Virus record (IMG/VR): IMGVR_UViG_3300028585_000026
Coordinates: 1 to 59,573 of that record
DNA: 59,573 nt
Source: a virus
Lineage: Duplodnaviria > Caudoviricetes
Reading direction: 5' to 3' (one strand)
The notes beneath the pieces were generated by a model. It was given only the letters and a program-made list of their open reading frames with translations. It was not told where the DNA came from and made no database searches. Below, in pieces: positions 28,871-51,281 of this stretch. Position numbers and translations under genes: made by a program. Position 1 is the first letter of the stretch, and each line of letters starts with the position of its first letter.

Positions 28871-28880
28871 AGAAGGTCTC

Positions 28881-29261
28881 ATGGCCGCACGACCGAAGAC
28901 GATTTGCCGAAAAGTGAGTTGCGGCAGGCTGATTGACGCCCCTGGTTACTGCGACCTCCACGCCAAGCAGGCGTCCGGGTGGGCACGCAGTCACGGCAAC
29001 CAGACCAGCGCGCAGCGAGGGTATGGGTACGAATGGCAGCAGCGCCGCGAGCGCATCCTGCAACGAGACTGCGGGCTTTGCCAGATCAAGGGTCCTGCTT
29101 GCCGATTCGTTGCCAGCGAGGTCGACCACAAGGTCAGCAAGGCAGCGGCGCGCGCCCAGGGCTGGAAGACCGAGCAGATCGAGGCCGACGCGAACCTGCA
29201 GGCGGCCTGTTCCGACTGCCACAAGGCCAAAACCCAGGCCGAACGGGTGGGGCGGGTCTAG
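28881..29261 (+). CDS. Terminase-associated HNH endonuclease (HK97 gp74-like)
   Basis: RGYGYEWQQRR, EVDHKV, NLQAACSDCHKAKT; precedes terS. Confidence 0.85.
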   Translation: MAARPKTICRKVSCGRLIDAPGYCDLHAKQASGWARSHGNQTSAQRGYGYEWQQRRERILQRDCGLCQIKGPACRFVASEVDHKVSKAAARAQGWKTEQIEADANLQAACSDCHKAKTQAERVGRV

Positions 29262-29347
29262 CCTTTGGGGCCTTTTGGCCCTAGACCGACTAGCAAGTTC
29301 TATTTTTACTTCCGCAATTCAGACTTTCGGACCTCAGGAGTAACAGG

Positions 29348-29749
29348 ATGCCCAAGCCCCGGACCCCCTCGGCGGTGCTCGAGGCGCGGGGTGCCTTTGA
29401 TAAGGATCCTGCGCGCCGCCGCGACGATTTCGAATCTGGCGCGTTCGACCCGACTCCGCCCACCTACTTCAAAGCCCACCAAAAAGCTGCCTGGAATGAG
29501 ATCGTCGCAGCCCTGCCGGCGACGGTCCTGCAAGCGACGGACCGGATGGCTGTCGAACTTGCGGCGCGCCTGATCGCCCACTTTCGCAAACTGCCTGACG
29601 ACGAGGTAACCTCGGCGCAGGTGGCTCAGATTCGCACCGCGTTGGCAGTGCTCGGCATGACGCCGGCGGATCGCTCCCGGGTATCGGCCAAAAAGCAGGA
29701 CCCGGTTAACCCGTTCGCCGACATGGTGGGCAGTAAGAAGGCACACTGA
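29348..29749 (+). CDS. terS: Terminase small subunit
   Basis: LGMTPADRSRV motif; upstream of terL. Confidence 0.85.
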   Translation: MPKPRTPSAVLEARGAFDKDPARRRDDFESGAFDPTPPTYFKAHQKAAWNEIVAALPATVLQATDRMAVELAARLIAHFRKLPDDEVTSAQVAQIRTALAVLGMTPADRSRVSAKKQDPVNPFADMVGSKKAH

Positions 29750-29751
29750 TC

Positions 29752-31428
29752 ATGTCGGCCGGTTTCGTCGGCACGGCACTGGAATACGCGCAGGCAGTCA
29801 CAAAAGGGAAGATCGTCGCCTGCAAGTGGGTCAAGCTGGCCTGCAAGAAGCACCTGGACGATCTGAAGGCGAGCCGGCGAAAAGCCTTCCCGTACTACTT
29901 CGACCCGGATGCGGCCAACAAGGTCTGCAAGTTCCTGTCGCTGATGCCCCACACCAAAGGGAAGTGGGCGAGAAAGCGCGAGACAATCAAGCTGGAGCCA
30001 TGGCAGTGCTTCGCGTTCGTTTCCCTATTTGGCTGGAAGATCAAGAAGAACGACCGGCGCCGGTACCGAAAAGCCTACTTCGCGGTGCCGCGGAAAAACG
30101 GCAAATCGATTATTGGCTCCGGCATCGGCCTGTATATGTTTTCGGTCGACGGTGAATTCGGCGCCGAGGTGTACTCGGGTGCAACCACTGAGGCGCAGGC
30201 CTGGGAAGTGTTCAGGCCGGCCAAGCAGATGCTCGAGCGGACGCCGCAGCTGCAGGAGGCGCTCGGCGCCGAGGTCTGGGCGAAGGCGCTGCTGGCGCCG
30301 GCCGACGGATCTCGCTTCGAGCCGGTGATCGGCAAGCCAGGCGATGGCGCATCGCCGTCATGCGCGATCGTGGACGAATACCACGAACACGACACGTCTG
30401 AGCTGGTCGACACGATGGAAACCGGCATGGGCGCGCGCGAGCAGCCGCTGCTGCTCATGATCACCACGGCCGGCTTCAACATCGCCGGACCTTGCTACGA
30501 CCAGGAGCAGGATGCCAAGAAGGTGCTCGAGGGAGTGCTGGACGATCCGGAGCTGTTCGCCCTGATCTATACGATCGACGACGGCGACGACTGGACCAGT
30601 CCAGCGGTCCTGCGCAAGGCCAACCCAAACTACGGGATTTCGGTCGACGAGGATTTCCTCCTGGCCCAGCAGAAGCTCGCGACGCAGAGCGCTTCGAAAC
30701 AGACTCGTTTCAAGACGAAGCACTTGAACATCTGGTGCTCGGCGAAGTCCGCCTGGCTGAATATGCTCGAGTGGAACAAGTGCGCGGATCTGACGCTGCG
30801 CCGTGAGCAGTTCAAAGGGGAGCGATGCTACCTCACGCTGGACTTGGCCAGCCGCTCCGACGTGTGCGTCCTGATGCTGGTGTTCGTGCGCGAGATCGAG
30901 GGCAAGCAGCACTTCTACCTGTTCGGAGACTACTACCTACCTGAGGCCGCGATCGAGAACGCGGAGAAGAACGCGAATGCCTACCGGAAGTGGGTGATCG
31001 AGGGATTCCTTCAGCAGCACGACGGCGCCGAGATCGACTTCGATTTGATCGAGGAAGACATGCTCGCCCTGGTGGCGGAATTTGGGCCGGATGAGGTTGT
31101 GTTCGACCCATACCGCGCCGCGCAGCTCGAGCAGCGGCTTACGAAAAACGGCGTCACTGCCGTCGAACTCGGGCAGACCGTCAAGAACCTGTCGCTCCCG
31201 ATGAAGGAATTTGAGAGCGCCATCAAGGCCGGCCGCGTGCATCACGACGGCAATCCGATGCTTGCCTGGATGATGTCGAACGTCGTGGCAAAGCTCGATG
31301 CCAAAGACAACATCTATCCGCGCAAGGAAAAGCCGGAGCAAAAAATCGACGGCGCTGTCGCCTCGATCATGGGGGTGTCTCGCGCTATCAGCAACGAGGC
31401 TACCGCTACTTCATTCTGGGAGTCCTGA
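29752..31428 (+). CDS. terL: Terminase large subunit
   Basis: PRKNGKS Walker A, IVDEYH, LDLAS, KIDGAVA. Confidence 0.95.
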   Translation: MSAGFVGTALEYAQAVTKGKIVACKWVKLACKKHLDDLKASRRKAFPYYFDPDAANKVCKFLSLMPHTKGKWARKRETIKLEPWQCFAFVSLFGWKIKKNDRRRYRKAYFAVPRKNGKSIIGSGIGLYMFSVDGEFGAEVYSGATTEAQAWEVFRPAKQMLERTPQLQEALGAEVWAKALLAPADGSRFEPVIGKPGDGASPSCAIVDEYHEHDTSELVDTMETGMGAREQPLLLMITTAGFNIAGPCYDQEQDAKKVLEGVLDDPELFALIYTIDDGDDWTSPAVLRKANPNYGISVDEDFLLAQQKLATQSASKQTRFKTKHLNIWCSAKSAWLNMLEWNKCADLTLRREQFKGERCYLTLDLASRSDVCVLMLVFVREIEGKQHFYLFGDYYLPEAAIENAEKNANAYRKWVIEGFLQQHDGAEIDFDLIEEDMLALVAEFGPDEVVFDPYRAAQLEQRLTKNGVTAVELGQTVKNLSLPMKEFESAIKAGRVHHDGNPMLAWMMSNVVAKLDAKDNIYPRKEKPEQKIDGAVASIMGVSRAISNEATATSFWES

Positions 31429-38761: not shown

Positions 38762-38928
38762 TGTACGACGTCAGCAGACTTCCGGCTGTGCGCGCTCAGC
38801 TCGAGCAATCAGGCCAAGCCGATCAGAAACGGGCAAAGCAGCCAGTTGAGTACGCGCGCGCTCCGATCGCGACCGGCGGCCAGGTCGGCGCCGGCCGCCC
38901 GCCAGCAACACAAGGAACAACCCGATGA
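38761..38928 (+). CDS. Small hypothetical protein
   Basis: Overlapping start/stop on both sides. Confidence 0.5.
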   Translation: MYDVSRLPAVRAQLEQSGQADQKRAKQPVEYARAPIATGGQVGAGRPPATQGTTR

Positions 38929-39485
38929 ACTGGAAACTGATCACGCCGCCCACCGGGCTCGCCGTTTCGATGGTCGAGGCCCGCCTGGCCGCGCGCGTCG
39001 ACGTCGAAGAAGACGGCACCTCGGCGCTGGACAGCGAGATCGAGCGCGCGATCCGGACCTACACCACAGAAGCAGAAGGGGAAACCAACCGCGCGGTGAT
39101 GGAGCAGACCTGGCGCCTGACGCTGGACCGCTTCGACGGCGCGATCGCGCTGCGCCGGCCGCCGCTGCTACAGGTCGACCACATCAAGTTTTACAACGCC
39201 GAGGGCGTCCAGCAAACCCTCGACCCGCTCGATTACCAGGTCGACGGCGAGAGCGAGCCGGGCTACATCGTGCCGGCGACCGGGCGGCGCTGGCCAGCGA
39301 CGGCGCGCCGGATCAACGCAGTCGAGGTGCAAATCCGTTGCGGCTACGGCCCTGACCACACGACGGTGCCGGATGCGATCTCGGGGTTCATTCTGGCGCG
39401 CCTGTCCGAGCATTTCCAGTCCGGTGGCCAGCCGAAGAACGAACACGTGAAGCGGCTGTTGTGGCCGGAGGTGGTCTACGGATGA
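38925..39485 (+). CDS. Head-tail connector (gp6-like)
   Basis: RAVMEQTWRLTLDRF, GYG...VPDAI. Confidence 0.85.
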   Translation: MNWKLITPPTGLAVSMVEARLAARVDVEEDGTSALDSEIERAIRTYTTEAEGETNRAVMEQTWRLTLDRFDGAIALRRPPLLQVDHIKFYNAEGVQQTLDPLDYQVDGESEPGYIVPATGRRWPATARRINAVEVQIRCGYGPDHTTVPDAISGFILARLSEHFQSGGQPKNEHVKRLLWPEVVYG

Positions 39486-39787
39486 TGAACGATCGAGTGC
39501 AGATCCTGAAGCGCGTCGCCGGCCGCGACAGCGCTGGCCAGCCCACCGAAAGCTGGTCGGCGCTCCGGTCAACCTGGGCGAACGTCAAATTCCAGTCCGG
39601 CGCCGGCGCCATCCGTGCGAATGCGGACCTCTCGATCGTGAAGTGCTCGATCAGGATCCGGGTTTGCCGCGACATCGATGCCTCAATGCGCGCGCGCTAC
39701 AAGGGCATCGATTACGACATCGAGGCGGTGCTGCCAGATTCGGACGATCGGGACTTCATGTTTCTGGTCTGCGAGAGCGTGAAATGA
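39482..39787 (+). CDS. Head closure / head-tail adaptor
   Basis: DSAGQPTESW, WANV, YDIEAV. Confidence 0.85.
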   Translation: MMNDRVQILKRVAGRDSAGQPTESWSALRSTWANVKFQSGAGAIRANADLSIVKCSIRIRVCRDIDASMRARYKGIDYDIEAVLPDSDDRDFMFLVCESVK

Positions 39788-40332
39788 TCGACTTTGACAT
39801 GAGTGGTTTTGAAGCCGCGATGACAGCGGCACAAAGGACGATCACTGAAGCAGTTGGCGAAGAGACGCTGCGTACGGTTGGATTCTCAGCTGCCGAAGTG
39901 TTTCGCGATGAGGCCAAACTCAACGCACTGAAGCGCGCCAAAACCTACACGATTTATAGAAACATCATTGCCAAACGGCTGATTGAAGAAGCTGACGGCG
40001 GCCGGCGGCAGGTCTATTTGGTGACTGTGCGCTCAGGCCAATTTAACGGCAGCGACGCGTTTTATTGGAAATTTGTCGCAAACGGTCACGCGAAGGTAAG
40101 GCAAAACAAGAACGTCAGCAAGAAGACTGGCCGCGTAGTGAACTGGAAGCGGCATAGAGCTCGAGAGGCGAAATACTGGGAGAAAAAAGCAGCGGAGCTG
40201 GAGAACGGCACCGCTATGGTCCCAGCGTATCCGTTTATGAGGCCAGCCTTTGAGAGTAAGAAGCAAGAGGCGGCTGATGCCATGACAAAAACCTTGGCTG
40301 AACAACTTAGCAAAAATCTGACAAAACCATGA
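39784..40332 (+). CDS. HK97 gp10-family neck/tail-completion protein
   Basis: AFYWKFV..G and PAYPFMRPAFE motifs; position between head closure and tail terminator. Confidence 0.85.
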   Translation: MIDFDMSGFEAAMTAAQRTITEAVGEETLRTVGFSAAEVFRDEAKLNALKRAKTYTIYRNIIAKRLIEEADGGRRQVYLVTVRSGQFNGSDAFYWKFVANGHAKVRQNKNVSKKTGRVVNWKRHRAREAKYWEKKAAELENGTAMVPAYPFMRPAFESKKQEAADAMTKTLAEQLSKNLTKP

Positions 40333-40679
40333 CACCCGAAGAGCACATCTACCAGGTCCTCCTGGGCCTCGCTGGCGGTCGGGTCTTCCCAGACATTGCG
40401 CCGCTCGACACCGTGAAGCCGTATGTCACGTTTCAATCCGTGGGCGGTGCCCCGACTAACTACCTGAGCGGAGATCGCCCTGATAAGCAGCATGTGCGCA
40501 TGCAGGTCAACGTCTGGGCCGAGCGCCGCATGGAGGCGTCCGAGCTCGGGATGTTGGTTGAGGACGCTATGCGCTCCGCAAATCACCTGCAGGTCGAGGT
40601 GCTGACCGGCCGCGTGGCCACATACGACGAACCGACGAACCTTCGCGGAACTATGCAGGACTTCAGCTTGTTCTGCTGA
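40329..40679 (+). CDS. Tail terminator (DUF3168-like)
   Basis: RVFPDIAP, PYVTF, RMQVNVWA. Confidence 0.85.
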   Translation: MTPEEHIYQVLLGLAGGRVFPDIAPLDTVKPYVTFQSVGGAPTNYLSGDRPDKQHVRMQVNVWAERRMEASELGMLVEDAMRSANHLQVEVLTGRVATYDEPTNLRGTMQDFSLFC

Positions 40680-40699
40680 CCTAGCAACACCCAATCCCC

Positions 40700-40732
40700 A
40701 AGCCGCTCCGATATTCCGGGCGGCTTTTCTTT
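40700..40732 (+). terminator. Intrinsic terminator-like hairpin
   Basis: AGCCGC...GCGGCT stem followed by TTTTCTTT. Confidence 0.5.
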
Positions 40733-40787
40733 GCCCAAACGGGCGCAACTGGCCCGGCGACGGGCCTTTTTCATTTGGAAGGCCCTT

Positions 40788-41420
40788 ATGCAACTGCCCA
40801 ATAATATCGCGTTCGCAATTGCGTCCGCCTTTGCCGCCGCCATCAGCATTACTGCAATCAGCAATGCTACGGAAGCGGTCGCCACCGCAACCAACACCTT
40901 CGCTGCTGGCGACTATTTCGAATACATCGGTGGCTGGAGCCAGGCTACTGGCCGCGTGTTCCGCGCGAAGGCAGCTTCGGGCACGTCGCTCACCTTCGAG
41001 GGCCTGGATACGACCGACACTTCGCTGTTCCCGGTTGGCGCCGGCACAGGCACTGTGCGCAAGGTCACGACCTGGGTGCCGGTAACCGGCGTGGTGAGCG
41101 CAGAGATCTCCGGCGGCGATGGCAAGAACGTCGAGGTGGCTCTGCTCGACTCCAACATGCCAGTCATGTTGCCGGACGGCTTCACCGCCACGTCCGTCAC
41201 TTTGACGACCGCAGACGACAAGTCGCTGCCGCACCACGCTGCGCTCAAGGCCGTTTCGGACGGCGTGAAGCTGACCTGCCTGCGCGGCTTGCTGCCTGGC
41301 GGCGGCGTGCTGCTGTATGCCGGCTACTGCTCGTTCAACGAATCGCCGAGCCTGGCGAAAGGCAGCGTCATGTCCGTCAAGTCGATCTTCTCGCTGCAGA
41401 ACAAGGTCGTCCGCTACTAA
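40788..41420 (+). CDS. Major tail tube protein
   Basis: MQLPN..., ITAISNATEAV, SFNESP; position. Confidence 0.85.
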   Translation: MQLPNNIAFAIASAFAAAISITAISNATEAVATATNTFAAGDYFEYIGGWSQATGRVFRAKAASGTSLTFEGLDTTDTSLFPVGAGTGTVRKVTTWVPVTGVVSAEISGGDGKNVEVALLDSNMPVMLPDGFTATSVTLTTADDKSLPHHAALKAVSDGVKLTCLRGLLPGGGVLLYAGYCSFNESPSLAKGSVMSVKSIFSLQNKVVRY

Positions 41421-41526
41421 ACCGCGTTGCCAGCTGGCGCCGAATGGTCGGCGCTAGCTTTTCCTGCCGCGGGGTCGCGCCTCGCGGTCTTTTTCCTGAA
41501 TCACTCCCACCTGAAAGAAAATAATC

Positions 41527-41844
41527 ATGGCAAAAGCAAAACTCTCCCTGGCCGTCGCCGCTACCTTCGCTGCAGTCGTTGCCATTCCGGTCCCGGGCGG
41601 CAAAACCGCCGATGTGGAATTCACCTTCAAGTGGATGAGCCGCGACAACTTTAAAGAATTCATCGAGAACCTGGCCGGCGCCGAAGACGTCGACGCGCTG
41701 ATGGACATCCTGGCAGGCTGGGACCTGGACGAGACCTTCAACAAGGACCAGGTCGAAAAGCTGGTGCAGCGCTACATGGGCGCCGCGCGCGCCATCCTCG
41801 ACAAGTTCATCGCCGAAGTCACCGGCGCCCGCGCAAAAAACTAA
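41527..41844 (+). CDS. Tail assembly chaperone (gpG-like)
   Basis: VEFTFK, GWDLDE; ends at slippery AAAAAAC. Confidence 0.85.
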   Translation: MAKAKLSLAVAATFAAVVAIPVPGGKTADVEFTFKWMSRDNFKEFIENLAGAEDVDALMDILAGWDLDETFNKDQVEKLVQRYMGAARAILDKFIAEVTGARAKN

Positions 41845-42158: not shown

Positions 42159-42185
42159 AGGGGGTATCGAATCGATACCCCCTTT
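42157..42185. terminator. Perfect 14-bp inverted repeat, probable bidirectional terminator
   Basis: AAAGGGGGTATCGA-A-TCGATACCCCCTTT between convergent genes. Confidence 0.65.
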
Positions 42186-42712
42186 CACGGAAGAATTTTT
42201 TTGCGCCCAGCCGTTTCACTCATTTCGAGAATCGCCTCTTGGAACTCGTTTAAGTCTAGGCCCGCTTCCGCGGCCCCAGAAAGGCTTTGCAGCTGTTCAA
42301 GGCTCTTTCGCATTTCGTCGATACGCTTCATCGACTCCTGTTGCAGCATTTGCGGAGAATGAATTGCTGAGCTTGCCTCAGACATCATTTTTTTGACCTC
42401 TGCTATGAGCTGAACTTCTGCCGGGTCAAGACGGGGGAGAAGGAGCTCCCCAAGCTGGCGAAGATGCGTGGCAACGATTGTTGACTTCAACTGCTCGGTA
42501 ATTTTCTGCGCATCCGTGAGATTCAGAAGAATACTTAAGCGTGCCACTGCAGTGGCCATCGCGGGGGCGGTGTCATCGAATGACTGTTCGAGCCGGGCGA
42601 TGAATTCTGCATTGAGCGACTTGCCGCTGCCGTCTGCAGCTTCTTGGAGTTTTGCGTGCAATGGCCTCGGAAGCCGCAATGCAGTTTTTACGTAATCGTC
42701 TTGGGTTGCCAT
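42185..42712 (-). CDS. Arc/Mnt-family ribbon-helix-helix repressor
   Basis: TALRLPRPLHAKLQEAADGSGKSLNAEFIARLEQSF. Confidence 0.85.
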   Translation of the reverse strand: MATQDDYVKTALRLPRPLHAKLQEAADGSGKSLNAEFIARLEQSFDDTAPAMATAVARLSILLNLTDAQKITEQLKSTIVATHLRQLGELLLPRLDPAEVQLIAEVKKMMSEASSAIHSPQMLQQESMKRIDEMRKSLEQLQSLSGAAEAGLDLNEFQEAILEMSETAGRKKILP

Positions 42713-42760
42713 AGCCGCAATGGTACACAGCGTGTCCCAAGTGTGCCACTAAAATAGTTC

Positions 42761-42815
42761 TTGCCTTCACTTTGGAGGCACTATACTATTGTCTACATGC
42801 CTTCAAAATGAAGGC
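42761..42815 (+). promoter_or_regulatory. Pant-like promoter with two 17-bp palindromic operators
   Basis: GCCTTCACTTTGGAGGC (42763-42779), GCCTTCAAAATGAAGGC (42799-42815); TTGCCT-N17-TACTAT. Confidence 0.7.
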
Positions 42816-42833
42816 GAAAATGGAGAGGAAATG

Positions 42834-43004
42834 ATGGCAACTCGAAAGGACATCGAGATCTGGCGCGGCCAAGTCCGCCTGCCCGGGCCTCTTGCGGAGT
42901 GGATAAAGGAGCGCGCGGATCAAAGTTATCGTTCGCTGAACGCGGAATTTGTGGAAGTAATTCGCGAGGCGAAGCATGCGGCTGAGAAACGGGAAGTCGC
43001 TTAA
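42834..43004 (+). CDS. Arc-like repressor
   Basis: QVRLPGPLAEWIKERADQSYRSLNAEFV. Confidence 0.85.
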   Translation: MATRKDIEIWRGQVRLPGPLAEWIKERADQSYRSLNAEFVEVIREAKHAAEKREVA

Positions 43005-43079
43005 CAAAAGAAAACCCCGAGCGATCTTGGCGGATGGGCTCGGGGCTTTAGTGAAACCACAGCTAAATGAGGAATCGAG

Positions 43080-43862
43080 ATGAATGCTATGACAAGCACG
43101 GCGAAATTGCAACTGGCACTGACCTTCGAAGGTCATTCAATCAAGACTATCGTGCGCGATGGTCAACTGTGGATGAGTGGCACCGAGGTCGGGGTGGCGC
43201 TCGCGTATGCCAGCCCGGACAAGGCAATTAAGCAGCTCTTTAACGCTCGCGCTGATGAGTTCACGTCAACAATGACGAAAGTCATTAAGGTCCTGACGGC
43301 GGGCGGCAAGCAAGCAGTGCGGTTTTTCAGTCTGCGCGGCGCCCACCTTCTGGCCATGTTCGCCAGGACCGACAAAGCGAAGGCGTTTCGCGTTTGGGTG
43401 CTGAACATCCTCGATAAGGAAGTGGCGCAGGTTAAGGCTGCTCCTGTCCAGAGCTATAGCTTTCCCCTGGCGAGTTGCAAGCCAGTGCCGAGGGGCGATT
43501 GCTTTGATAGCCAGGCGCAGTTCGATCTCAAGTCGCTGACCGATCCTCGCAACCCGGCGCCGGAGCTTGACTTGATCAGGCAGCTCGAGCGCGATGGCCA
43601 CGACGTCACCGGCGCGCGGGTTCGCATCCTCGCCCTGCGCGAACAGTTGGGCTATATGCTGATGGCCAATGAGCGCATGGGCGTATGGCAGGAGCGGCTG
43701 GCAGGCATGATGCGGGAGATGACTGATTACCAGCGGCCTCAAGGTGTCGGGGCGCTTTTCTCTCGAGAGCCGCAGGGGCTTTCGCGACTCTCTTTCAGTG
43801 CGCAGCTGCCTGACTACGATGGCATGAAGTTTGGCTTCCGCAAGCTGGGAGGTGCTGCGTAA
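43080..43862 (+). CDS. BRO-N domain antirepressor
   Basis: FSLRGAHLLAMFARTDKAKAFRVWVLNILD. Confidence 0.85.
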   Translation: MNAMTSTAKLQLALTFEGHSIKTIVRDGQLWMSGTEVGVALAYASPDKAIKQLFNARADEFTSTMTKVIKVLTAGGKQAVRFFSLRGAHLLAMFARTDKAKAFRVWVLNILDKEVAQVKAAPVQSYSFPLASCKPVPRGDCFDSQAQFDLKSLTDPRNPAPELDLIRQLERDGHDVTGARVRILALREQLGYMLMANERMGVWQERLAGMMREMTDYQRPQGVGALFSREPQGLSRLSFSAQLPDYDGMKFGFRKLGGAA

Positions 43863-44431
43863 TGGAGATCCTCAAGCTCAAACTGACCGGTACATCGCCG
43901 CTGATGATGCACAGCGACCGATTGGCCAACCCACTGCTGCCCGAGACGAAAGCGCACAAGTCGCTGACAGCAAAGCGCAAAAAGACTGACGAGGATCACC
44001 TCGCAATCGCACGATCCGAGTTCGTCAGCGGCCTTTACTGGAATGAGGCCGCCGGCGTGCACGTGCCGGGACAGAACTTCGATGCCACGTTCCTGGCTGG
44101 CGCCAAGCTGCAGAAACTCGGCACCGCATGGAAGCGCGGCGCGTTGGTGATGACCGACCGGGTGAAACTGCTGTACGACGGCCCGAAATCTCCAGCAGCG
44201 CTGTGGGAGGACAATCGCTTCATCGACTGCCGCGGCGTGAAGGTTGGCTCGGCAAAGGTGATGAGGTATCGGCCGGTCTTCCTGGAATGGGCAGCCGAGC
44301 TCGAGCTCGCATTCAATCCTGAAATTCTCGATGAGGGCGAGGTGCGGAAAGCGCTGGCAGACGCTGGCGCGCTGATCGGCGTCTGCGAGTACCGCCCTCG
44401 CTTCGGCCGCTTCGAGGTGGCGTATGGATGA
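43862..44431 (+). CDS. Stand-alone RAMP/Cas7-like protein (Vipr-like RNA-guided effector)
   Basis: LKLTGTSPLMMH first strand, HVPGQNF helix-start motif, C-terminal Gly-rich loop GALIGVCEYRPRFGRFEV; upstream of the pentamer arrays. Confidence 0.8.
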   Translation: MEILKLKLTGTSPLMMHSDRLANPLLPETKAHKSLTAKRKKTDEDHLAIARSEFVSGLYWNEAAGVHVPGQNFDATFLAGAKLQKLGTAWKRGALVMTDRVKLLYDGPKSPAALWEDNRFIDCRGVKVGSAKVMRYRPVFLEWAAELELAFNPEILDEGEVRKALADAGALIGVCEYRPRFGRFEVAYG

Positions 44432-44894
44432 CACGGCAGAGCCGACCCTGCTGCCGGAATGGCGTCAAGCGGTGAGGGATTTCCTCTCCGCTGGCTTCAA
44501 GGAGGGCGATATCGTGCCGCACGCCTGGCTCGAGCAGCACTTCGGCATGGCAAAGTTGGACGAGGACAAGCCGCTGCTGCCGGCTGACTGGAGCGCGAGG
44601 CAGTTCGACTGGCTGCGCAATATTGAATCGTTTCGAACCGAGCTGCTCGAACAGCATCAGGTTTTTCTCAGCAGCGTTTATGGCGAAGGCTATAGGCTGG
44701 TACCACCCAGGGAGCAGAGCGCGATCGCGCAAGAGCGGTTCGAGCGGGACGCGAAGCGCTCATATAGGAAGGCAGCGGCAACGCTGAAGAACGTGAGGCT
44801 CGGCGAGTTGACGGAGGCGGAACGAAAGGAAAACCTCGATGCCATCGCGCGCATTGCGATGTTGCGCGGAATGCACAAGACGGCAGTGGAATAG
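44424..44894 (+). CDS. Accessory wHTH-like protein of the RAMP cassette
   Basis: LSSVYGEGYRLV wing motif, helical C-terminus; overlaps the RAMP gene stop. Confidence 0.65.
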   Translation: MDDTAEPTLLPEWRQAVRDFLSAGFKEGDIVPHAWLEQHFGMAKLDEDKPLLPADWSARQFDWLRNIESFRTELLEQHQVFLSSVYGEGYRLVPPREQSAIAQERFERDAKRSYRKAAATLKNVRLGELTEAERKENLDAIARIAMLRGMHKTAVE

Positions 44895-44900
44895 AATTCC

Positions 44901-45004
44901 GCCGAGCTTCGATTCGGCAGGCTCGGCCTTGGTACGGCATGGCATGGCTTGGCGGGCTATGGGCTGACAACAGCAGCCAGCATCTTCGATGAGGGTGTTG
45001 GTTG
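44901..45004 (+). ncRNA. Guide-like RNA 1: 13 GGY-NN pentamers plus a 14-bp hairpin
   Basis: gccga gcttc gattc ggcag gctcg gcctt ggtac ggcat ggcat ggctt ggcgg gctat gggct; hairpin 44974-45004 with 4 G-U pairs. Confidence 0.8.
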
Positions 45005-45021
45005 ATGCGGTTAGCATCGCT

Positions 45022-45153
45022 AGCGAGGTACGGCAAGTCTTGGCTGGGTCCGATTCGGCTCGGCACGGCAAGCTCGGGTCAGGCTAGGTAAGGCGCGGTT
45101 TGCCGTGGTATGGGTAGCAAGCGAAAAGCTCCGAGAGGGGCTTTTCGTGTTGC
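45022..45153 (+). ncRNA. Guide-like RNA 2: 18-19 GGY-NN pentamers plus a GAGA-tetraloop hairpin
   Basis: Strict 5-nt period over 45027-45116; hairpin 45121-45148. Confidence 0.8.
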
Positions 45154-45197
45154 CCGATTGTGCTGGTGTAACATTGCCGCTCAATAAAGGAGGCGGC

Positions 45198-45557
45198 ATG
45201 GCGAAACTTGAAATACACGCGGGTGATTTCCCGAATGGTAGCCACTCGATTGGCTTCAACGTGATTACGTTGAACTGGCAGCCGGGCGACGGCCTTACCG
45301 GAAAAAGCATCGCTCTCATTGGCTACTTGACATCGGTGTCTATAGCGACAGAGGAAGAAGTTAGGCGAGTTGGCGGAACGATCGGTTGGGGTCTAGCAGG
45401 AGCTGCAATCCTCGGACCGGTTGGGCTGCTTGCGGGAGCGCTCCTGGGTGGCAAGGGGAAGGACGTTACGTTCGTTGCTCAGTTCAACGACGGCAAGAAG
45501 ATGCTTGCCACTACGGATTCGAAAACATTTACAAAAATGCAGGCGCTTGTGTTTTAG
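45198..45557 (+). CDS. Small protein with Gly-zipper hydrophobic segment
   Basis: AGGAGG RBS; GWGLAGAAILGPVGLLAGALLGG. Confidence 0.7.
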   Translation: MAKLEIHAGDFPNGSHSIGFNVITLNWQPGDGLTGKSIALIGYLTSVSIATEEEVRRVGGTIGWGLAGAAILGPVGLLAGALLGGKGKDVTFVAQFNDGKKMLATTDSKTFTKMQALVF

Positions 45558-45578
45558 TGAGCGCAGCTACCGGCAACC

Positions 45579-45603
45579 AAGCCGCCTTCGGGCGGCTTTT
45601 TTT
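45579..45603 (+). terminator. Intrinsic terminator
   Basis: GCCGCC-TTCG-GGCGGC plus T7. Confidence 0.8.
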
Positions 45604-45614
45604 ATGGGCGGAAC

Positions 45615-48600
45615 ATGAGCGAAATCGTAAACGAGGCAGTCATTAAGGTTTCGGCCGACGCCAGCGGCGTCGAGACTGGTCTTCGTGAAGTCGAGAAAGC
45701 GACCGCCAAGACAGGAAAGAATCTCGAGAACCTCGCTGCGACTGCAGGCAAGGCCAGCAAGTCCCTCGAAAACCTTGGTAGCACGCCGGGCTTGCGGACT
45801 GTCGGCGACGGCGCTGGCGCAGCAGCGGGCAAGGTCGACAGCGCGACCAAAAGCATGGCCGAAGCGATCCAGCGCGCCACCGCTACGATGAATGTTGGCG
45901 CGAAGGGTAGCGCCGCCTACTACGCGGCCTTGGCAAATACACGTGGGCTGAACGTCGCGGCGCTGCAGCCTTACCTTGATCAGTTGGATGCCGTCACCAA
46001 GAAGACGGCGCAGGCAGCCGCCGCCCAGCGTCAGCTTGACGAGGGCAATAATTTTCTCGCCGGATTGCGCTCCCAGGCGGATGGAATCGGAAAGACTGCG
46101 TCACAACTAGCCGCCCTGCGCGCCGAGCAGTTGGGTGTTGCAGATGATGCGCGCCCGCTGATCGAGCAGTTGGGAGCTGCAGAGGAGGCCGCCGGGAATG
46201 CAGGAAATTCAGTGAGTGGTTTCGCTGCTGCACTCGCCGCGGCCGGCGCCAGCGCCGGGATCGCGAGCGTGGTGCAACTCTCGGATGCATACGGCAGTTA
46301 CCTCGCCCAACTCAAGCTGGCGACAACCGGCCAAAGCGAGTTTTTGAGGGCTCAGGCATCTACGCAGCAGATTGCCGCCTCCGCCCAGTCGGACCTTGCA
46401 AGCACCGCTTCACTCTACGCGAGCATCACGAAGAGCACCCGCGATCTCGGCATTGCCCAGGCACAGGTGGCCAATATCACAGAAGTCGTAAGTCTGGCGC
46501 TGAAGGTATCGGGGGCAAGCACGCAATCAGCGTCTTCGGCGATCCTGCAGCTATCCCAAGCATTCGCGTCAGGAGTTCTGCGCGGTGAGGAATTCAACTC
46601 TGTAAATGAAGCGTCGCCGCGATTGATGGAGGCGCTAGCCGATGGGATCGGCGTGCCAGTCGGCGCACTGCGCGCAATGGCCGAACAGGGTGCGCTGACG
46701 ACCGAGGTGCTTGCAAACGGATTGCCACGAGCGCTGGAAAAGCTCCGCGAAGAGGCGAAGTCGGTTGAGACGGTCGGCGGCGCGATCACGGTCCTCAAGG
46801 ACAAAACGATGCTGCTCGTCGGTGCCACCGCGCAGTCGAGCGGAGTAGTCGCCGTGCTGTCGGGCGGGATCAGGCTGCTGAGCGATAACCTCGTACTCGC
46901 GGGCGGGGCGATGGCTACCGTTGCTGCTGTCAAACTCGGGGCATCCCTTGCGTCGGCAGCCTCCGGCGCCTACGCCAGCGTAGTAGCAAACAACGCCAGG
47001 CTAGCATCGAATCTTGCGGCCGCCCGGTCGGACGTCGCTGCCACTGCAAGTGCTGCCGCGCTCGCTAGCGCGCGTGTGACCGAATTGCGTGCTGCTGTAC
47101 TCGCTGCCGAGGGCAATGTCGCGCTGGCGATTACTACGAACGCTCTGATTCCCGCTCAGGCGAAAGCCACTACTGCGGCCGCAGCGCACGCAGCGGCGCT
47201 ATCCGCACAGGCTGCAGCTGCAGGCGCGGCATCGGTAGCGGGGCGCGCCTTCAGCGGCGTGATGGCGCTGGCCGGCGGTCCGGTGGGCGTCATCATCGGT
47301 CTGCTGGGCGTGGCTGCTACGATCTGGGGTGTATGGGCAAGCAAGGCGAAAGAGTCAAATGACAAGGTAGCGCAGTCTACCGACGAATCGACAGCTGACA
47401 TGATCAAGCGGCTGGACGAGCAAATCGCGAAACTTCGCGAGCGCAATGCTCTGGCCGCCGAGGACCCGCGAGTCAAGGCCCTGGATGGCATAAGCCAGGT
47501 CGACCGGGATGGACTTGAGCGCGCTCGGGAGGCGCTGGCGAAGAATAAAGCTGACCAACAGGCGAATCGCGACAACAGGCAATACCACCTCAATATTGAC
47601 CTGCGCACGCAGGAAATTGAACTTTCGAAAAACTATGAGGCGGCGCTGAGCAGGGTGGCTACCCTGCAAGGCGAGGTTGCGATTGCAGCAGCACGCACTC
47701 GCAATGAGCGACTCGATCAGTGGTTCGAGAAAAACGGCACCCCGGCGCAGCGTCTTGCGGCGGAACTCGCAGAACTCAAAAAGCAGTTTGGGGCCATTCC
47801 GCCAGAGATGGAAAAGCTGGTGCGCGCCAAGTATGTCGACCCGGCTGCAGCGAAAGCGATCTCGGACCAGGGAAGAGCCGCCAAGGAGTATGCCGATCTA
47901 CTCGCCCGCATCAACGGCAAGAGCCTGGGCGTCGATTCAGACTACGAAGAGAACGTAGCAAAGCTGGCCGCTGGGTTTAAAGCTGGCAAGCAGTCGCTGG
48001 CCGAGTACAACGCTACTCTCGAAAAGTACAACAGCCAACAGCCACGCGCGAAGCAGGCGGAAGAGGACCGGGCCAAGGCCCTCAAGGAAATCAGCGACTT
48101 CCAGACCGAGTATTCGAAAGGCTTGGAGGCGACGAGCACGGTCTATGCCAAGCGCCTGCAGGATGCCGAAACCGAAGCGAGCCGCAACGAGGACCTGGCG
48201 CGCACCTACGGCATGACCACGTCAGCGATCGAGCAGCTGGAGCTGGCGCGGCTGGAGGAGCAGCTGGCCCAGCGCTCGACGCTCGGCCTGACGCTGGACG
48301 AGATTGAGCACCTCGAAAAGCTGATCGACGTGAAGAGGCGCAATGCGGTGGCCGTATCCGCAATGGAGCAGGTCGACGCAGCGAAGAAGGCTGCTGAGGA
48401 ATGGAAGCGCACCTCTGCAACGATCGAGCAGTCACTGACCGATGCGCTGCTGCGCGGGTTCGAGTCCGGCAATGGCTTGGGCAAGAACTTTGTCGAGACG
48501 ATGAAGAACATGTTCAGCACGCTGGTCCTGCGTCCCGTGATCCAGGCGGTGGTGGCGCCGGCGAGCAACAGCCTGGCCGGCATGCTTGGCCAAGGCGGAT

Positions 48601-51281
48601 CGAGTGGTACGCTGGCCAACGCCGGCAGCCTGATCAATATGGGCAAGACGATCTACTCCGGGTTCACCGGCGGGATCGCGAGCACGCTGGGCGGCTGGGC
48701 GAGCTCGGCTGGCTCGATGTTTGGATCGTCGGCCGTGTCGTCGTTCGGCGCGGGCCTGTCGGCGGCGGGCGGCAACACCGGCATGGCGGCGATGTACGCG
48801 TCGGCCCAGACCTCCGGGAACTTGGCCGCTGGAGCCTCTGCCGGCATGAGCGCGGGCACCTACGCCATCCCAATTGCAGGCTGGATCGCGGCCGGAATGG
48901 CCCTGTCGAACAACCTGTACAAGCAGGGCTGGGACGCCAACAACGGCACGGTGAACTCGCTGGGCAAGGTGGTAAATGCGCCGATGTTCCTGGCAAACAA
49001 TATCCTCAAGGGTATTGGGCTGAGCGACTCTGCTGCCAACATCTTCGCCGGCATGGGACCGATCTCGAAGCTGTTCGGCCGGAAGAACCCTGAGATCGAA
49101 GAGGGCGGAGTTCGCGGCTCGATCAGTGCCGCCGGATTCGTTGGCGAGAACTACGCAAAAATCCTGGAGAAAGGGGGCTGGTTCCGCAGCGACAAGCGTT
49201 ACACCGAAACCAACCCGCTGAGCACTGACCAGCAGAGCGGCTTCTCCGACAGTACGAAAGCGCTGATGGATGCGGCGCGCGGCTTCGCTGCAACGCTGGG
49301 CATCGAAGCAAGCATCATCGACGGCTACAACAAGCAGATCACGCTGCAGCTCGGTGCCGACGAGGAAAAGAACAAGGAGGCGATCGCCAAGCTGTTCGGC
49401 AACATCGGCGATGACCTGTCGCTGCTGCTCTTGCCATCCGTGGCGTCCTTCTCGACCGCAGGCGAAAGCGTGAGCACCACGATGCAGCGACTGGTGACGG
49501 ACTACGTCGCCATCGACGAAGCATTCACCGCCATCGGGACGACCTTTGGCACGTCGGGCGCTGCATCCTTGGCGGCGCGGGAGAAGTTTCTTGCGGCGGC
49601 CGGCGGCTTGGAGTCGTTCGCAAACAACGCGGCCTTTTTCCACGAGAACTTCCTCTCCGAGGCGGAGCGCAATGCGCCGGTGTTGAGGTCGGTCACCGAG
49701 CAGATGGCGGCGCTCAGCCTGGCCAGCGTGGACACGCGTGAGGAGTTCAAGCAGGCGGTGCTCGCCCTGACTGAGAGCGGCGCGCTGGCAACCGAGGAGG
49801 GCGCTGCTCGCTACGCGGCATTGATGAAGGTGCAGGCCGGCTTCGCGCAGGTCTATCCGGCGATCGATGCTACGGCCGAAGCGGCCGCGCGCGCGGCAGA
49901 CGTTCTACAAGAGCGGAATGACCTGCAGCGGGAACTCGACCAGCTCACACTTTCGGCAGCCGAACTGTTGGCCCAACAGCGCGCCGCGCTCGACGAGAGC
50001 AACCGCGGGCTGTTTGACCAGATACAGGTGATCAAGGCCAAAACGGCGGCGGAGGAGGCGGCCACCGAGGCAGCCCAGAAGGCGAAAGATGCTGCCGCGT
50101 CGCTGATGTCTGGCGTAGACGGCGCGTTCTCGGTCCTCCAGAAGGTGGCCGACCGCCAGAAGAAGGCGCTGCAGGAAGAGATCAACGTGCGCACGCAGTC
50201 GGTCCAAAAGATCGAAGCGCTTTCCCAGTCCCTGCGCAGCACGCTGGAGGGCATGACAGTTCAAGGCCGCGAGGCTGAGGACCGCCAGGCAGCCCAAGCG
50301 CAGATCCAGGCGGCGCTGGCCATCGCGAAAGCGAGCGGCAAGCTGCCGAACGCGGACGACCTGAAAACGGCCCTGTCGGTGGTCAGCAAGGATTCGGCCA
50401 ATCTGTTCGCCACGCAGGAGGACTACCTGCGCGACTTCTACGCCACCCGGATCGGTATCGAGGATCTGGCAGGCCTGACCGACGATGCACTGTCGGTCGA
50501 GGAGCGCAGCTTGGCCAAGCTGGAGGACCAGGTAAAGCAGTACGACCTGATGCTCGAGCGCGAGCAGGAGCAGATCGACGTCCTCAAGGGCATCAGCACC
50601 ATCGGTCTTTCGATCGAGCAGGCCATCCAGGCGCTGCACGGCGCAATGCAGGCCGCCAGCGCGAACCCGGTCAACTCGGCCACGTCGGCGATTAACCAAG
50701 CCTACCAGTCCGCTCTCGGCCGTGCGCCGGATCAGGCTGGGCTCGACTACTGGAAAGACCGGGCCGCTGGCGGTATCTCGACCGGCGCCATCGTCGATTC
50801 GATCAAGGGTTCGCCTGAGGCGCAGATCCAGAAGCTGTACCAGGACGTGTTCGGCCGCCCGGCTGATGCGGCCGGGTTGAGTTATTGGGTCGACCGGCTC
50901 AGCGGTGGGATCAGCCTGGGCGCCATCCGGGGCACGCTGGAAGACAGCGACGAGGCCAAAAAGAAGCTTCGCGGCTTCGCCGTTGGCACCAACTTCATCC
51001 CGGCCGACATGCCAGCGATGGTCCACCAGGGTGAGCGGATCATTCCTGCGGCTGACAACCGCGAACTGATGCGCCGCCTGGCCAGCCCAGAGCAGGGCAG
51101 CAATGCGTTGATCGCCGAGATCCGCGCGCTCCGTGAGGAGGTTGCTCTTCTGCGCGGAGAGGCCGAAAGGGGAACGGACGCGGCTGTGCAGCTCGCCGAT
51201 CAGTTCGACAACGTAACGGACGGCGGAAACGCTTGCCGCGTCGAAGTCATCAATAAAGTGCGCACCAAGGAGACCGCATGA
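45615..51281 (+). CDS. Tape measure protein
   Basis: 1888 aa, Ala-rich; QLSQAFASGVLRGEEFNSVNE tape-measure motif. Confidence 0.95.
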   Translation: MSEIVNEAVIKVSADASGVETGLREVEKATAKTGKNLENLAATAGKASKSLENLGSTPGLRTVGDGAGAAAGKVDSATKSMAEAIQRATATMNVGAKGSAAYYAALANTRGLNVAALQPYLDQLDAVTKKTAQAAAAQRQLDEGNNFLAGLRSQADGIGKTASQLAALRAEQLGVADDARPLIEQLGAAEEAAGNAGNSVSGFAAALAAAGASAGIASVVQLSDAYGSYLAQLKLATTGQSEFLRAQASTQQIAASAQSDLASTASLYASITKSTRDLGIAQAQVANITEVVSLALKVSGASTQSASSAILQLSQAFASGVLRGEEFNSVNEASPRLMEALADGIGVPVGALRAMAEQGALTTEVLANGLPRALEKLREEAKSVETVGGAITVLKDKTMLLVGATAQSSGVVAVLSGGIRLLSDNLVLAGGAMATVAAVKLGASLASAASGAYASVVANNARLASNLAAARSDVAATASAAALASARVTELRAAVLAAEGNVALAITTNALIPAQAKATTAAAAHAAALSAQAAAAGAASVAGRAFSGVMALAGGPVGVIIGLLGVAATIWGVWASKAKESNDKVAQSTDESTADMIKRLDEQIAKLRERNALAAEDPRVKALDGISQVDRDGLERAREALAKNKADQQANRDNRQYHLNIDLRTQEIELSKNYEAALSRVATLQGEVAIAAARTRNERLDQWFEKNGTPAQRLAAELAELKKQFGAIPPEMEKLVRAKYVDPAAAKAISDQGRAAKEYADLLARINGKSLGVDSDYEENVAKLAAGFKAGKQSLAEYNATLEKYNSQQPRAKQAEEDRAKALKEISDFQTEYSKGLEATSTVYAKRLQDAETEASRNEDLARTYGMTTSAIEQLELARLEEQLAQRSTLGLTLDEIEHLEKLIDVKRRNAVAVSAMEQVDAAKKAAEEWKRTSATIEQSLTDALLRGFESGNGLGKNFVETMKNMFSTLVLRPVIQAVVAPASNSLAGMLGQGGSSGTLANAGSLINMGKTIYSGFTGGIASTLGGWASSAGSMFGSSAVSSFGAGLSAAGGNTGMAAMYASAQTSGNLAAGASAGMSAGTYAIPIAGWIAAGMALSNNLYKQGWDANNGTVNSLGKVVNAPMFLANNILKGIGLSDSAANIFAGMGPISKLFGRKNPEIEEGGVRGSISAAGFVGENYAKILEKGGWFRSDKRYTETNPLSTDQQSGFSDSTKALMDAARGFAATLGIEASIIDGYNKQITLQLGADEEKNKEAIAKLFGNIGDDLSLLLLPSVASFSTAGESVSTTMQRLVTDYVAIDEAFTAIGTTFGTSGAASLAAREKFLAAAGGLESFANNAAFFHENFLSEAERNAPVLRSVTEQMAALSLASVDTREEFKQAVLALTESGALATEEGAARYAALMKVQAGFAQVYPAIDATAEAAARAADVLQERNDLQRELDQLTLSAAELLAQQRAALDESNRGLFDQIQVIKAKTAAEEAATEAAQKAKDAAASLMSGVDGAFSVLQKVADRQKKALQEEINVRTQSVQKIEALSQSLRSTLEGMTVQGREAEDRQAAQAQIQAALAIAKASGKLPNADDLKTALSVVSKDSANLFATQEDYLRDFYATRIGIEDLAGLTDDALSVEERSLAKLEDQVKQYDLMLEREQEQIDVLKGISTIGLSIEQAIQALHGAMQAASANPVNSATSAINQAYQSALGRAPDQAGLDYWKDRAAGGISTGAIVDSIKGSPEAQIQKLYQDVFGRPADAAGLSYWVDRLSGGISLGAIRGTLEDSDEAKKKLRGFAVGTNFIPADMPAMVHQGERIIPAADNRELMRRLASPEQGSNALIAEIRALREEVALLRGEAERGTDAAVQLADQFDNVTDGGNACRVEVINKVRTKETA

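Follow-up and report, generated by a model that had tools for sequence, protein, structure and literature searches.

VIPR (Viral Interference Programmable Repeat) systems, described in a set of preprints from 2026 (10.64898/2026.04.26.720920, 10.64898/2026.04.26.720927, 10.64898/2026.10.15.759431), combine a minimal RAMP protein, Vipr, and usually one accessory gene, vap, with vrRNAs, which are made of tandem GGY/NN units (Y being a pyrimidine and NN two variable bases) and a structured tail (10.64898/2026.04.26.720920). In the same preprint a vrRNA is recognized by at least four tandem YNNGG units with hypervariable NN, and specificity is assigned to the NN bases alone (10.64898/2026.04.26.720920). 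According to the reported mechanism, one Vipr protomer occupies each repeat, the G, G and Y bases are hidden, the NN bases pair with DNA such that every third base is skipped, and transcription is repressed (10.64898/2026.04.26.720920, 10.64898/2026.04.26.720927). VIPR systems are further marked by the RAMP fold of Vipr, with an RRM core, a G-loop and a thumb, and by vrRNAs of ~100 nt that co-purify with this protein. Here we analyzed a virus record of 59,573 nt, estimated to be 98% complete (IMGVR_UViG_3300028585_000026; referred to throughout as the window), in which the intergenic gap at 44895-45197, between a 156-aa open reading frame (ORF; 44424-44894) and a 119-aa ORF (45198-45557), holds two pentamer tracts. 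Very probably, these tracts form the vrRNA array of a siphovirus-like phage that carries a type II VIPR system. This kind of element is already in print in the 2026 preprints, and the array is a further example of it. The features of the locus, as we read them, are as follows.

43862-44431, + strand: vipr gene, 189 aa (phrog_4652; phmmer match to PDB 36pp_D).
44424-44894, + strand: vap1-like accessory gene, 156 aa (phrog_5926; BLASTP match to the SUSP2 gene that follows vipr).
44901-44960, + strand: vrRNA1 repeat tract, 12 GGY/NN units, then GGG.
44961-45019, + strand: vrRNA1 tail, GGG followed by helices H1, H2 and H3.
45022-45111, + strand: vrRNA2 repeat tract, 18 units of which the first (AGC-GA) is non-canonical, then GGG.
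45112-45155, + strand: vrRNA2 tail, GGGUAG and then a terminator-like hairpin.

The arrangement is that described for the type II systems of SUSP1 and SUSP2, with vap1 directly downstream of vipr and the array following on the same strand. As in those systems, the GGY/NN units run into a characteristic ending (the SUSP2 vrRNAs end ...GGTATGGGTAG, as does vrRNA2 of the window), the skipped base falls on the wobble position in coding targets, and there is no self-target. SUSP1 and SUSP2 are Escherichia phages, whereas the window represents a siphovirus-like phage whose host, judging from its closest Vipr relatives, is probably betaproteobacterial. The window further differs from SUSP1 and SUSP2 in that it has no vrRNA upstream of vipr. 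Its internal tail comprises three hairpins (a pseudoknot is reported for the SUSP1 clade), and its vrRNA2 has 17-18 units compared with the 9-16 quoted for the SUSP1 and Pseudomonas fulva sets. The P. fulva prophage VIPR is likewise of type II, with vap1 and a multi-vrRNA array, and its vrRNAs are described as targeting resident prophages and other VIPR systems; the P. fulva clade is delimited there by a Vipr identity above 90% to that of P. fulva (10.64898/2026.04.26.720920). A wider comparison can be made with Class 1 CRISPR-Cas, in which a Cas7 filament forms on the crRNA: in both cases a RAMP protein polymerizes on the guide and thumb insertions break the duplex periodically (10.64898/2026.04.26.720920, 10.64898/2026.04.26.720927). 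The window array departs from this scheme, since its period would be 5 nt of RNA to 3 nt of DNA compared with 6 to 6 in CRISPR, and three guide bases would be sequestered in each unit. Moreover, it lacks a repeat-spacer array, as a repeat scan found no CRISPR-type direct repeats (~20-40 nt, with unique spacers), and PHROG/Pfam annotation of its neighbors, which are Arc, Ant, vipr, vap and tail genes, found no cas genes near it.

The identification rests firstly on the proteins encoded next to the array. The 189-aa protein aligned with chain D of PDB entry 36pp, 'SUSP1 Vipr protein', at E 5.2e-45 (residues 1-186 on 1-187, phmmer), and the identity to SUSP2 was 43.6% by tblastn. There were 603 Vipr homologues at E <= 0.001, and many Pseudomonas prophage Viprs were ~70-74% identical to the window protein. 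Cryo-electron microscopy (cryo-EM) has been reported to place H17, R138, D177, W178, R179, K33, R39 and K82 among the residues that read G1, G2 and Y3 or clamp the DNA (10.64898/2026.04.26.720927). When these residues were mapped through the 36pp alignment, H17, K33, R39 and K82 were identical in the window Vipr, R138 and R179 corresponded to R137 and R178, and D177 and W178 were conservatively replaced by E176 and Y177, while E71/M72 and K88 of SUSP1 Vipr were replaced by Q71/N72 and T88. Across 23 clade members, H17, R39, K82, R137, E176, Y177 and R178 were invariant and K33 was present in at least 90%. In addition, a C-terminal RPRFGRF motif in the window Vipr aligned with the G-loop region of SUSP1.

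The 156-aa protein matched the gene that is placed after vipr in SUSP2 (E 2e-16, 28% identity over 116 residues, BLASTP). We infer from the locus description in 10.64898/2026.04.26.720920 that this SUSP2 gene is vap1; the 156-aa protein is then a vap1 homologue, and the system is therefore of type II. The vipr-vap pair is also present in Pseudomonas phage Medea1 and in LESphi2. Comparison of the 156-aa protein with PDB sequences gave nothing significant, Pfam found no DNA-binding domain in it, and Pfam likewise returned no family for the products of vipr, vap or the downstream 119-aa ORF.

The tracts themselves have the published guide architecture. Read from the 5′ end, the NN bases of vrRNA1 are GA, TC, TC, AG, CG, TT, AC, AT, AT, TT, GG and AT, and those of vrRNA2 are GA, AC, AA, TT, TG, CC, TC, TC, AC, AA, CG, CA, TA, AA, GC, TT, GT and AT. 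In vrRNA1, position 1 is G in 12/12 units and position 3 a pyrimidine in 12/12, while position 2 is G in just 6/12; in vrRNA2 the corresponding counts are 17/18 (the exception being the first unit, AGC), 18/18 and 14/18. Over both strands of the whole window, the period-5 G-N-Y runs of 17 and 12 units were followed by a next longest run of 6, and the longest runs in 50 first-order Markov simulations were of 4-7 units. A sequence-only reading of this DNA had described two + strand pentamer-patterned units at 44901-45153, with G at position 1 except in the first pentamer of the second unit and a pyrimidine at position 3 up to the terminal ggg, and had interpreted them as guides in which a GGY scaffold is interleaved with free NN spacers at a 5-nt scale, rather than as a microsatellite. 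The sequence reads as it described, with runs longer than any simulated, and the interpretation coincides with the vrRNA architecture reported in the preprints. The lag-5 autocorrelation that it had proposed as a check likewise bore it out: in a scan of the whole window, the 14 highest windows for G all fell within 44851-45061.

Standard repeat and homology tools were silent on the region. Tandem Repeats Finder reported no row across the array, because the units are dissimilar to one another, and blastn of 44880-45200 against a phage collection found no match, as expected from the divergence of the NN positions. Rfam gave no match in the whole window at the gathering score, and at E <= 10 the region 44700-45400 gave chance-level matches only (E >= 2). 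The locus is a textbook-quality natural case of the noncontiguous GGY/NN guide code, spotted from raw sequence alone, and the code was recognizable without prior knowledge. Its discovery value is limited by the fact that the kind was published in 2026; what it adds is an environmental type II system that is neither enterobacterial nor from Pseudomonas, with readable predicted targets for both of its guides.

Both tracts are followed by structured tails. In the vrRNA1 tail, H1 is formed by 44963-44966 with 44971-44974, H2, which includes G-U pairs, by 44975-44987 with 44991-45003, and H3 by 45004-45008 with 45014-45018. The vrRNA2 hairpin pairs 45121-45132 with 45137-45148 around a GAGA loop and is extended by outer pairs between 45112-45118 and 45149-45155. 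The + strand folds of the two tails had free energies of -31.5 kcal/mol (z -5.3) and -30.7 kcal/mol (z -6.9), compared with -14.7 (z -1.2) and -17.9 kcal/mol (z -3.6) for the - strand. When 44 internal tails of related loci were aligned, 95.4% of cells were paired, compared with 30-61% when the partner was slid by 1-3 columns, and there were 151 compensatory cells compared with 38 +/- 6 in shuffles. H2 showed compensatory changes at 11 of its 13 pairs and one U-G pair that was invariant in all 44 tails, while H1 was nearly invariable. This covariation, together with the invariant U-G pair, supports a + strand RNA, as the sequence-only reading had argued from G-U pairing and had suggested be checked by folding and covariation with homologous loci. 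It had also drawn a 3′ hairpin behind each unit. Both hairpins are real, although the first is only the middle helix of a three-helix tail. Because of a break in its T-run, the vrRNA2 hairpin was missed by a simple terminator scan; in related arrays, too, the last vrRNA closes with a hairpin and then a U-run.

The relatives of this locus were assembled as 101 Vipr-containing loci (19 from genomes, 80 viral ones kept from 222, Medea1 and LESphi2), a set that was not de-duplicated. A + strand pentamer array lay within 1.6 kb downstream of vipr in 89/101 of these loci and upstream in 7, while 7, several of them incomplete, had neither. The 207 unique related arrays contain 8-29 units, with a median of 12. 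Position 2, which the array caller does not demand, was G in 74% of their units, and positions 4 and 5 were nearly random, with 0.05 and 0.04 bits. The sequence-only reading had named NN positions conserved as strongly as GGY, or translation of the region, as outcomes that would speak against guides; the NN values just given are the opposite of the former, and translation is implausible for a 5-nt period and a unit number of 8-29. In the closest relative (L002/L024), whose Vipr is 91% identical, there are three vrRNAs with quite different NN bases and the same tail. The finer grammar proposed at the outset fared less well. A CGA start was found in just 5/177 related arrays and is no part of the grammar, and of the TATGGG end, AT is the last NN before GGG in 105/177, which makes it a tendency and not a rule, the GGG itself having been used to select these 177 arrays at the tail start. 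The ORF 3′ of the array is not conserved with it, since L002 and Medea1 have different ORFs there.

Two further observations were made on these arrays. In more distant loci the array lies upstream of vipr, as in LESphi2 (L004, 3116-3304) and in L018, L020, L022, L028, L032 and L103, and several of these upstream arrays were called on both strands at near-identical coordinates, which suggests a different unit consensus. Separately, L045 (5083-5212) and L046 (5083-5227) contain unbroken pentamer runs of 26 and 29 units, far above the 9-16 quoted for the SUSP1 and P. fulva sets, and these long runs may be fused or tail-less vrRNAs.

A few points weigh against the VIPR identification. Because the array caller demands G as the first and Y as the third base of a unit, the frequencies at these two positions among the related arrays are circular. 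An AlphaFold2 model of Vipr built on a 23-sequence alignment had a mean predicted local distance difference test (pLDDT) score of 57.9, too poor to confirm the RAMP fold, and a scan of 42700-45700 for sigma-70-like promoters returned 0 sites. Transcription, the positions of the RNA ends and binding by Vipr are deduced from homologous systems. The VIPR features present here are vipr with its contact residues, vap1, the GGY/NN tracts, the structured tail and predicted gapped targets outside the phage itself.

Targets were matched by the published 1-nt-skip rule, in which NN is paired and every third target base is skipped; the target criterion given in the VIPR preprints is an 80% match. The best matches inside the window, 16/24 for vrRNA1 and 23/36 for vrRNA2, lay within the shuffled-guide null, and published VIPR systems are likewise described as lacking a self-target (10.64898/2026.04.26.720920). 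The first search used units 2-17 of vrRNA2 with at most 3 mismatches and covered 401 genomes of the order around a Telluria metagenome-assembled genome, which carries the closest named Vipr. A single match came back, differing at 2 of 32 positions, while the reversed controls had none. Over its full length, vrRNA2 matched a prophage site in genome G402 at 31/36, with units 2-15 perfect, and the gene at this site is scored as a tail-completion gene (phrog_5 tail completion/Neck1, E 1.5e-14; Pfam HK97-gp10_like, 21.9 bits with a cut-off of 21.4). In the 80 kb surrounding this site, vrRNA1 matched best at 19/24, its units 2-10 being perfect. This second site is located in the same gene at a distance of 93 nt from the first and shares its strand and frame, and the skipped bases fall at codon position 3, the wobble position, in both. 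Searching genome G402 for vrRNA1 with at most 3 mismatches gave 0 matches, the 19/24 site having come from a separate scan, and the vrRNA2 pattern was found in 0/5 genomes carrying related VIPR loci.

The same picture emerged from viral_contigs, where the exact vrRNA2 core (28 specified bases) was found at 7 loci and the exact vrRNA1 core (18 specified bases) at 65, compared with 3 for the reversed vrRNA1 core. A homologue of the target gene was present in 71/72 of the core-match loci, the exception being L130. Of 64 loci picked solely for their vrRNA1 core, 63 match vrRNA2 as well, at 23-30/36, and 33 of these reach at least 29. The mean entropy over 53 unique sites was 0.435 bits at the NN positions and 1.165 bits at the skip positions. 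Both guides thus match the antisense strand of the tail-completion gene (HK97 gp10-like/Neck1) in related phages and prophages. No Vipr homologues were found in the fetched parts of the target loci, although these are fragments, so that little is said by their absence.

The prophage that carries the best vrRNA2 target (G402:C1, ~665-677 kb) is 81% identical in nucleotide sequence to the window over a 2.5-kb stretch and 67% identical over the region of the tail-completion and major tail genes, the aligned parts of the window being 28880-31391 and 38922-41534. The window phage and the targeted phage are thus related. The window has its own orthologue of the target gene:

39643-40332, + strand: own tail-completion/Neck1 (HK97 gp10-like) gene (phrog_5, E 1.9e-13).

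Its true start is likely the ATG at 39781. This copy matches the phage's own guides at just 15/24 and 22/36 (61-63%).

Taken on the sequence matches, both guides are probably aimed at the tail-completion gene of sibling phages, an assignment that gains weight from the fact that a single gene is matched by two guides. Such a target would set the locus apart from the published systems, since the targets reported for SUSP1 and SUSP2 are a satellite recombinase and those of the P. fulva clade are mainly lysis-lysogeny regulators, whereas here both guides converge on a virion-assembly gene of siblings. The terms 'tail completion' and 'gp10' are absent from the main text of 10.64898/2026.04.26.720920 and 10.64898/2026.10.15.759431, although the literature library as a whole was not searched for such targets, and the supplementary target tables (data S3, fig. 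S15) may list such targets.

The best-surviving alternative accepts the vrRNAs as genuine and holds that the sibling tail-completion gene is not their functional target: the guides would derive from, or drift with, a conserved structural motif, and they would either have a true target outside the sequences sampled or serve as decoys, a use of vrRNAs by satellites that has been described (10.64898/2026.10.15.759431). We consider this unlikely, although several of our results count in its favor and against the assignment given above. No target exceeded 31/36 for vrRNA2, and vrRNA1 over all 12 units never exceeded 19/24 (79%), just under the 80% criterion. All targets seen were mismatched at unit 1 and at the final one to three units, so that the 3′-most guide units are unmatched in every one of them, and metagenome_contigs contained 0 perfect targets for these longer cores (vrRNA2 units 2-17, vrRNA1 units 2-11). 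The target sites also coincide with the conserved protein motifs HRNIIVKRLEEE and DAFYWRFVEEGHKFV, so that the wide matching is in part a consequence of protein conservation. Finally, units 8-17 of vrRNA2 matched 18 further viral contigs (L185-L202) exactly. For 17/18 of these contigs, the match falls on a distant gp10-like homologue (27-35% amino acid identity). The 5′ units are unmatched and the overall score is 24-25/36; this distant clade fits only the 3′ half of vrRNA2. Hence vrRNA2 may span two target clades, or these matches may just reflect the conserved protein motif. What tells against the alternative is that two independent guides fall on one gene, strand and frame only 93 nt apart, that the vrRNA1 core has so many more matches than its reversed control, that the skip bases lie at the wobble positions of the target gene, and that the phage's own copy is a clearly poorer match. 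Furthermore, a natural functional footprint of just 18 bp is cited in a figure legend of 10.64898/2026.10.15.759431.

The system would be expected to work as follows. By homology to the SUSP1 and P. fulva systems, the + strand would be transcribed into two RNAs, each a GGY-NN tract capped by a structured tail. One Vipr protomer per repeat would sequester the G, G and Y bases and display the NN dinucleotides, which would pair with double-stranded DNA in a gapped register of two bases paired and one skipped. The resulting protein-held R-loop (a gapped R-loop triplex) would block transcription, so that the tail-completion gene of a sibling phage would be silenced during co-infection or co-residence in a shared host, probably with a polar block of the sibling's late operon downstream of the roadblock. 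The siblings, in turn, would direct their own vrRNAs back at the window phage.

Guides of related loci that could serve in this way were sought by scanning them against the window with the same 1-nt-skip rule. Chance alone gives short guides scores of up to 12/14, and only longer ones were therefore counted, of which three stand out. In L024, the closest relative, the third vrRNA matched the window's own tail-completion gene (40198-40235, - strand) at 23/26. A vrRNA of L042 and one of L093 matched the window vipr gene at 18/20 and 18/22, and the sites for these two guides inside vipr are 43946-43974 (+) and 44240-44271 (+). The skip bases lay at codon position 3 in all three matches. vrRNAs aimed at vipr genes have been described (10.64898/2026.04.26.720920, 10.64898/2026.10.15.759431).

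On balance, we lean slightly towards a picture in which sibling temperate siphophages use VIPR reciprocally, in an arms race over a single orthologous virion gene, with guides that use protein-constrained codon positions, an own copy that has been recoded, and vrRNA2 perhaps serving as a two-clade guide (units 2-15 for one clade and units 8-17 for the other). Both guides of the window phage would then be spent on the tail-completion gene of its relatives. Since the guides read codon positions 1 and 2, which are constrained by the protein, the targeted phage would not escape by synonymous drift, and the window's own copy may have been recoded at the protein level for evasion, with YRNIIAKRLIEE and DAFYWKFVANGHAKV in place of the motifs found in the target. 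Targeting between relatives looks reciprocal, and the own copy appears to have escaped. If true, this would bring into VIPR biology a direct competition, fought through structural genes, among sibling phages that co-infect or reside in the same host, and it would provide a simple rule to predict which phages exclude which.

A different kind of explanation for the tracts is offered by RNA-binding attenuation. In Bacillus, TRAP recognizes (G/U)AG-NN sites, in which a conserved triplet is followed by a spacer of 2-3 nt, and the oligomeric protein binds with one subunit per repeat. By analogy, the array could be a protein-titrating or attenuator RNA in which a ring-shaped protein reads spaced triplets in a leader and controls the ORF at 45198-45557; the periodicity of a triplet and a 2-nt spacer, the unstructured RNA and a terminator-like hairpin just 5′ of an ORF all fit this idea. 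We regard it as very improbable. The ORF after the array is not conserved, L002 and Medea1 having different ones, and the array travels with vipr-vap instead, in 89 + 7 of the 101 loci; the NN bases find specific DNA targets by the gapped rule, and no Rfam family was matched. The array also differs from TRAP sites in the identity of the triplet, in spacers that would carry DNA-target information, and in having a RAMP protein as its partner. Weaker still, and hardly credible, is a non-functional degenerate tandem repeat, G-rich DNA prone to two-tier G-quadruplexes or a translated segment, for although GG recurs every 5 nt and - strand ORFs of 99-132 aa, which we judged spurious, overlap the array region, the scaffold is kept while NN is randomized over 207 arrays, the adjoining tail covaries, a period of 5 does not fit codons, the unit number ranges from 8 to 29, and position 2 is often not G (6/12 G in the first tract), which breaks G-quartets.

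Microsatellite, G-quadruplex, coding and TRAP-like attenuator readings were all rejected on these grounds.

The vrRNA array is embedded in a block of genes at 42185-45557, which contains Arc-like genes, Ant/Bro-N, vipr, vap, the array and a small ORF, and which lies between the major tail gene and a putative tape-measure ORF. Family searches of the window proteins found two Arc-like genes and a Bro-N/Ant antirepressor gene near the array. The major tail gene is located as follows:

40731-41420: major tail protein gene, upstream of the arc/ant-vipr block.

The 1888-aa ORF at 45615-51281, downstream of the array, is read as the tape-measure gene by its size and by its place after the major tail gene. 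In Pseudomonas phage Medea1 (L003, 1726-5044), the same block lies between tail genes K and I. Because it thus occupies a different tail-gene interval there, the Arc/Ant-vipr-vap-array block resembles a mobile cassette that is linked to an immI-like (arc/ant) module.

The small ORF that follows the array varies among relatives. In the window (45198-45557) it encodes a 119-aa protein (phrog_12025) with a glycine-rich hydrophobic stretch, in L002 (3836-4180) it begins with a lipoprotein-like signal, and in Medea1 (4652-5044) it is of a third kind, so the slot 3′ of the array looks like a variable cargo position. In the window, a strong intrinsic terminator (45579-45598; an 8-bp stem with 6 G-C pairs, then a T-run) separates the small ORF from the 1888-aa ORF, which starts at 45615, and so seems to insulate the cassette from the tail operon.

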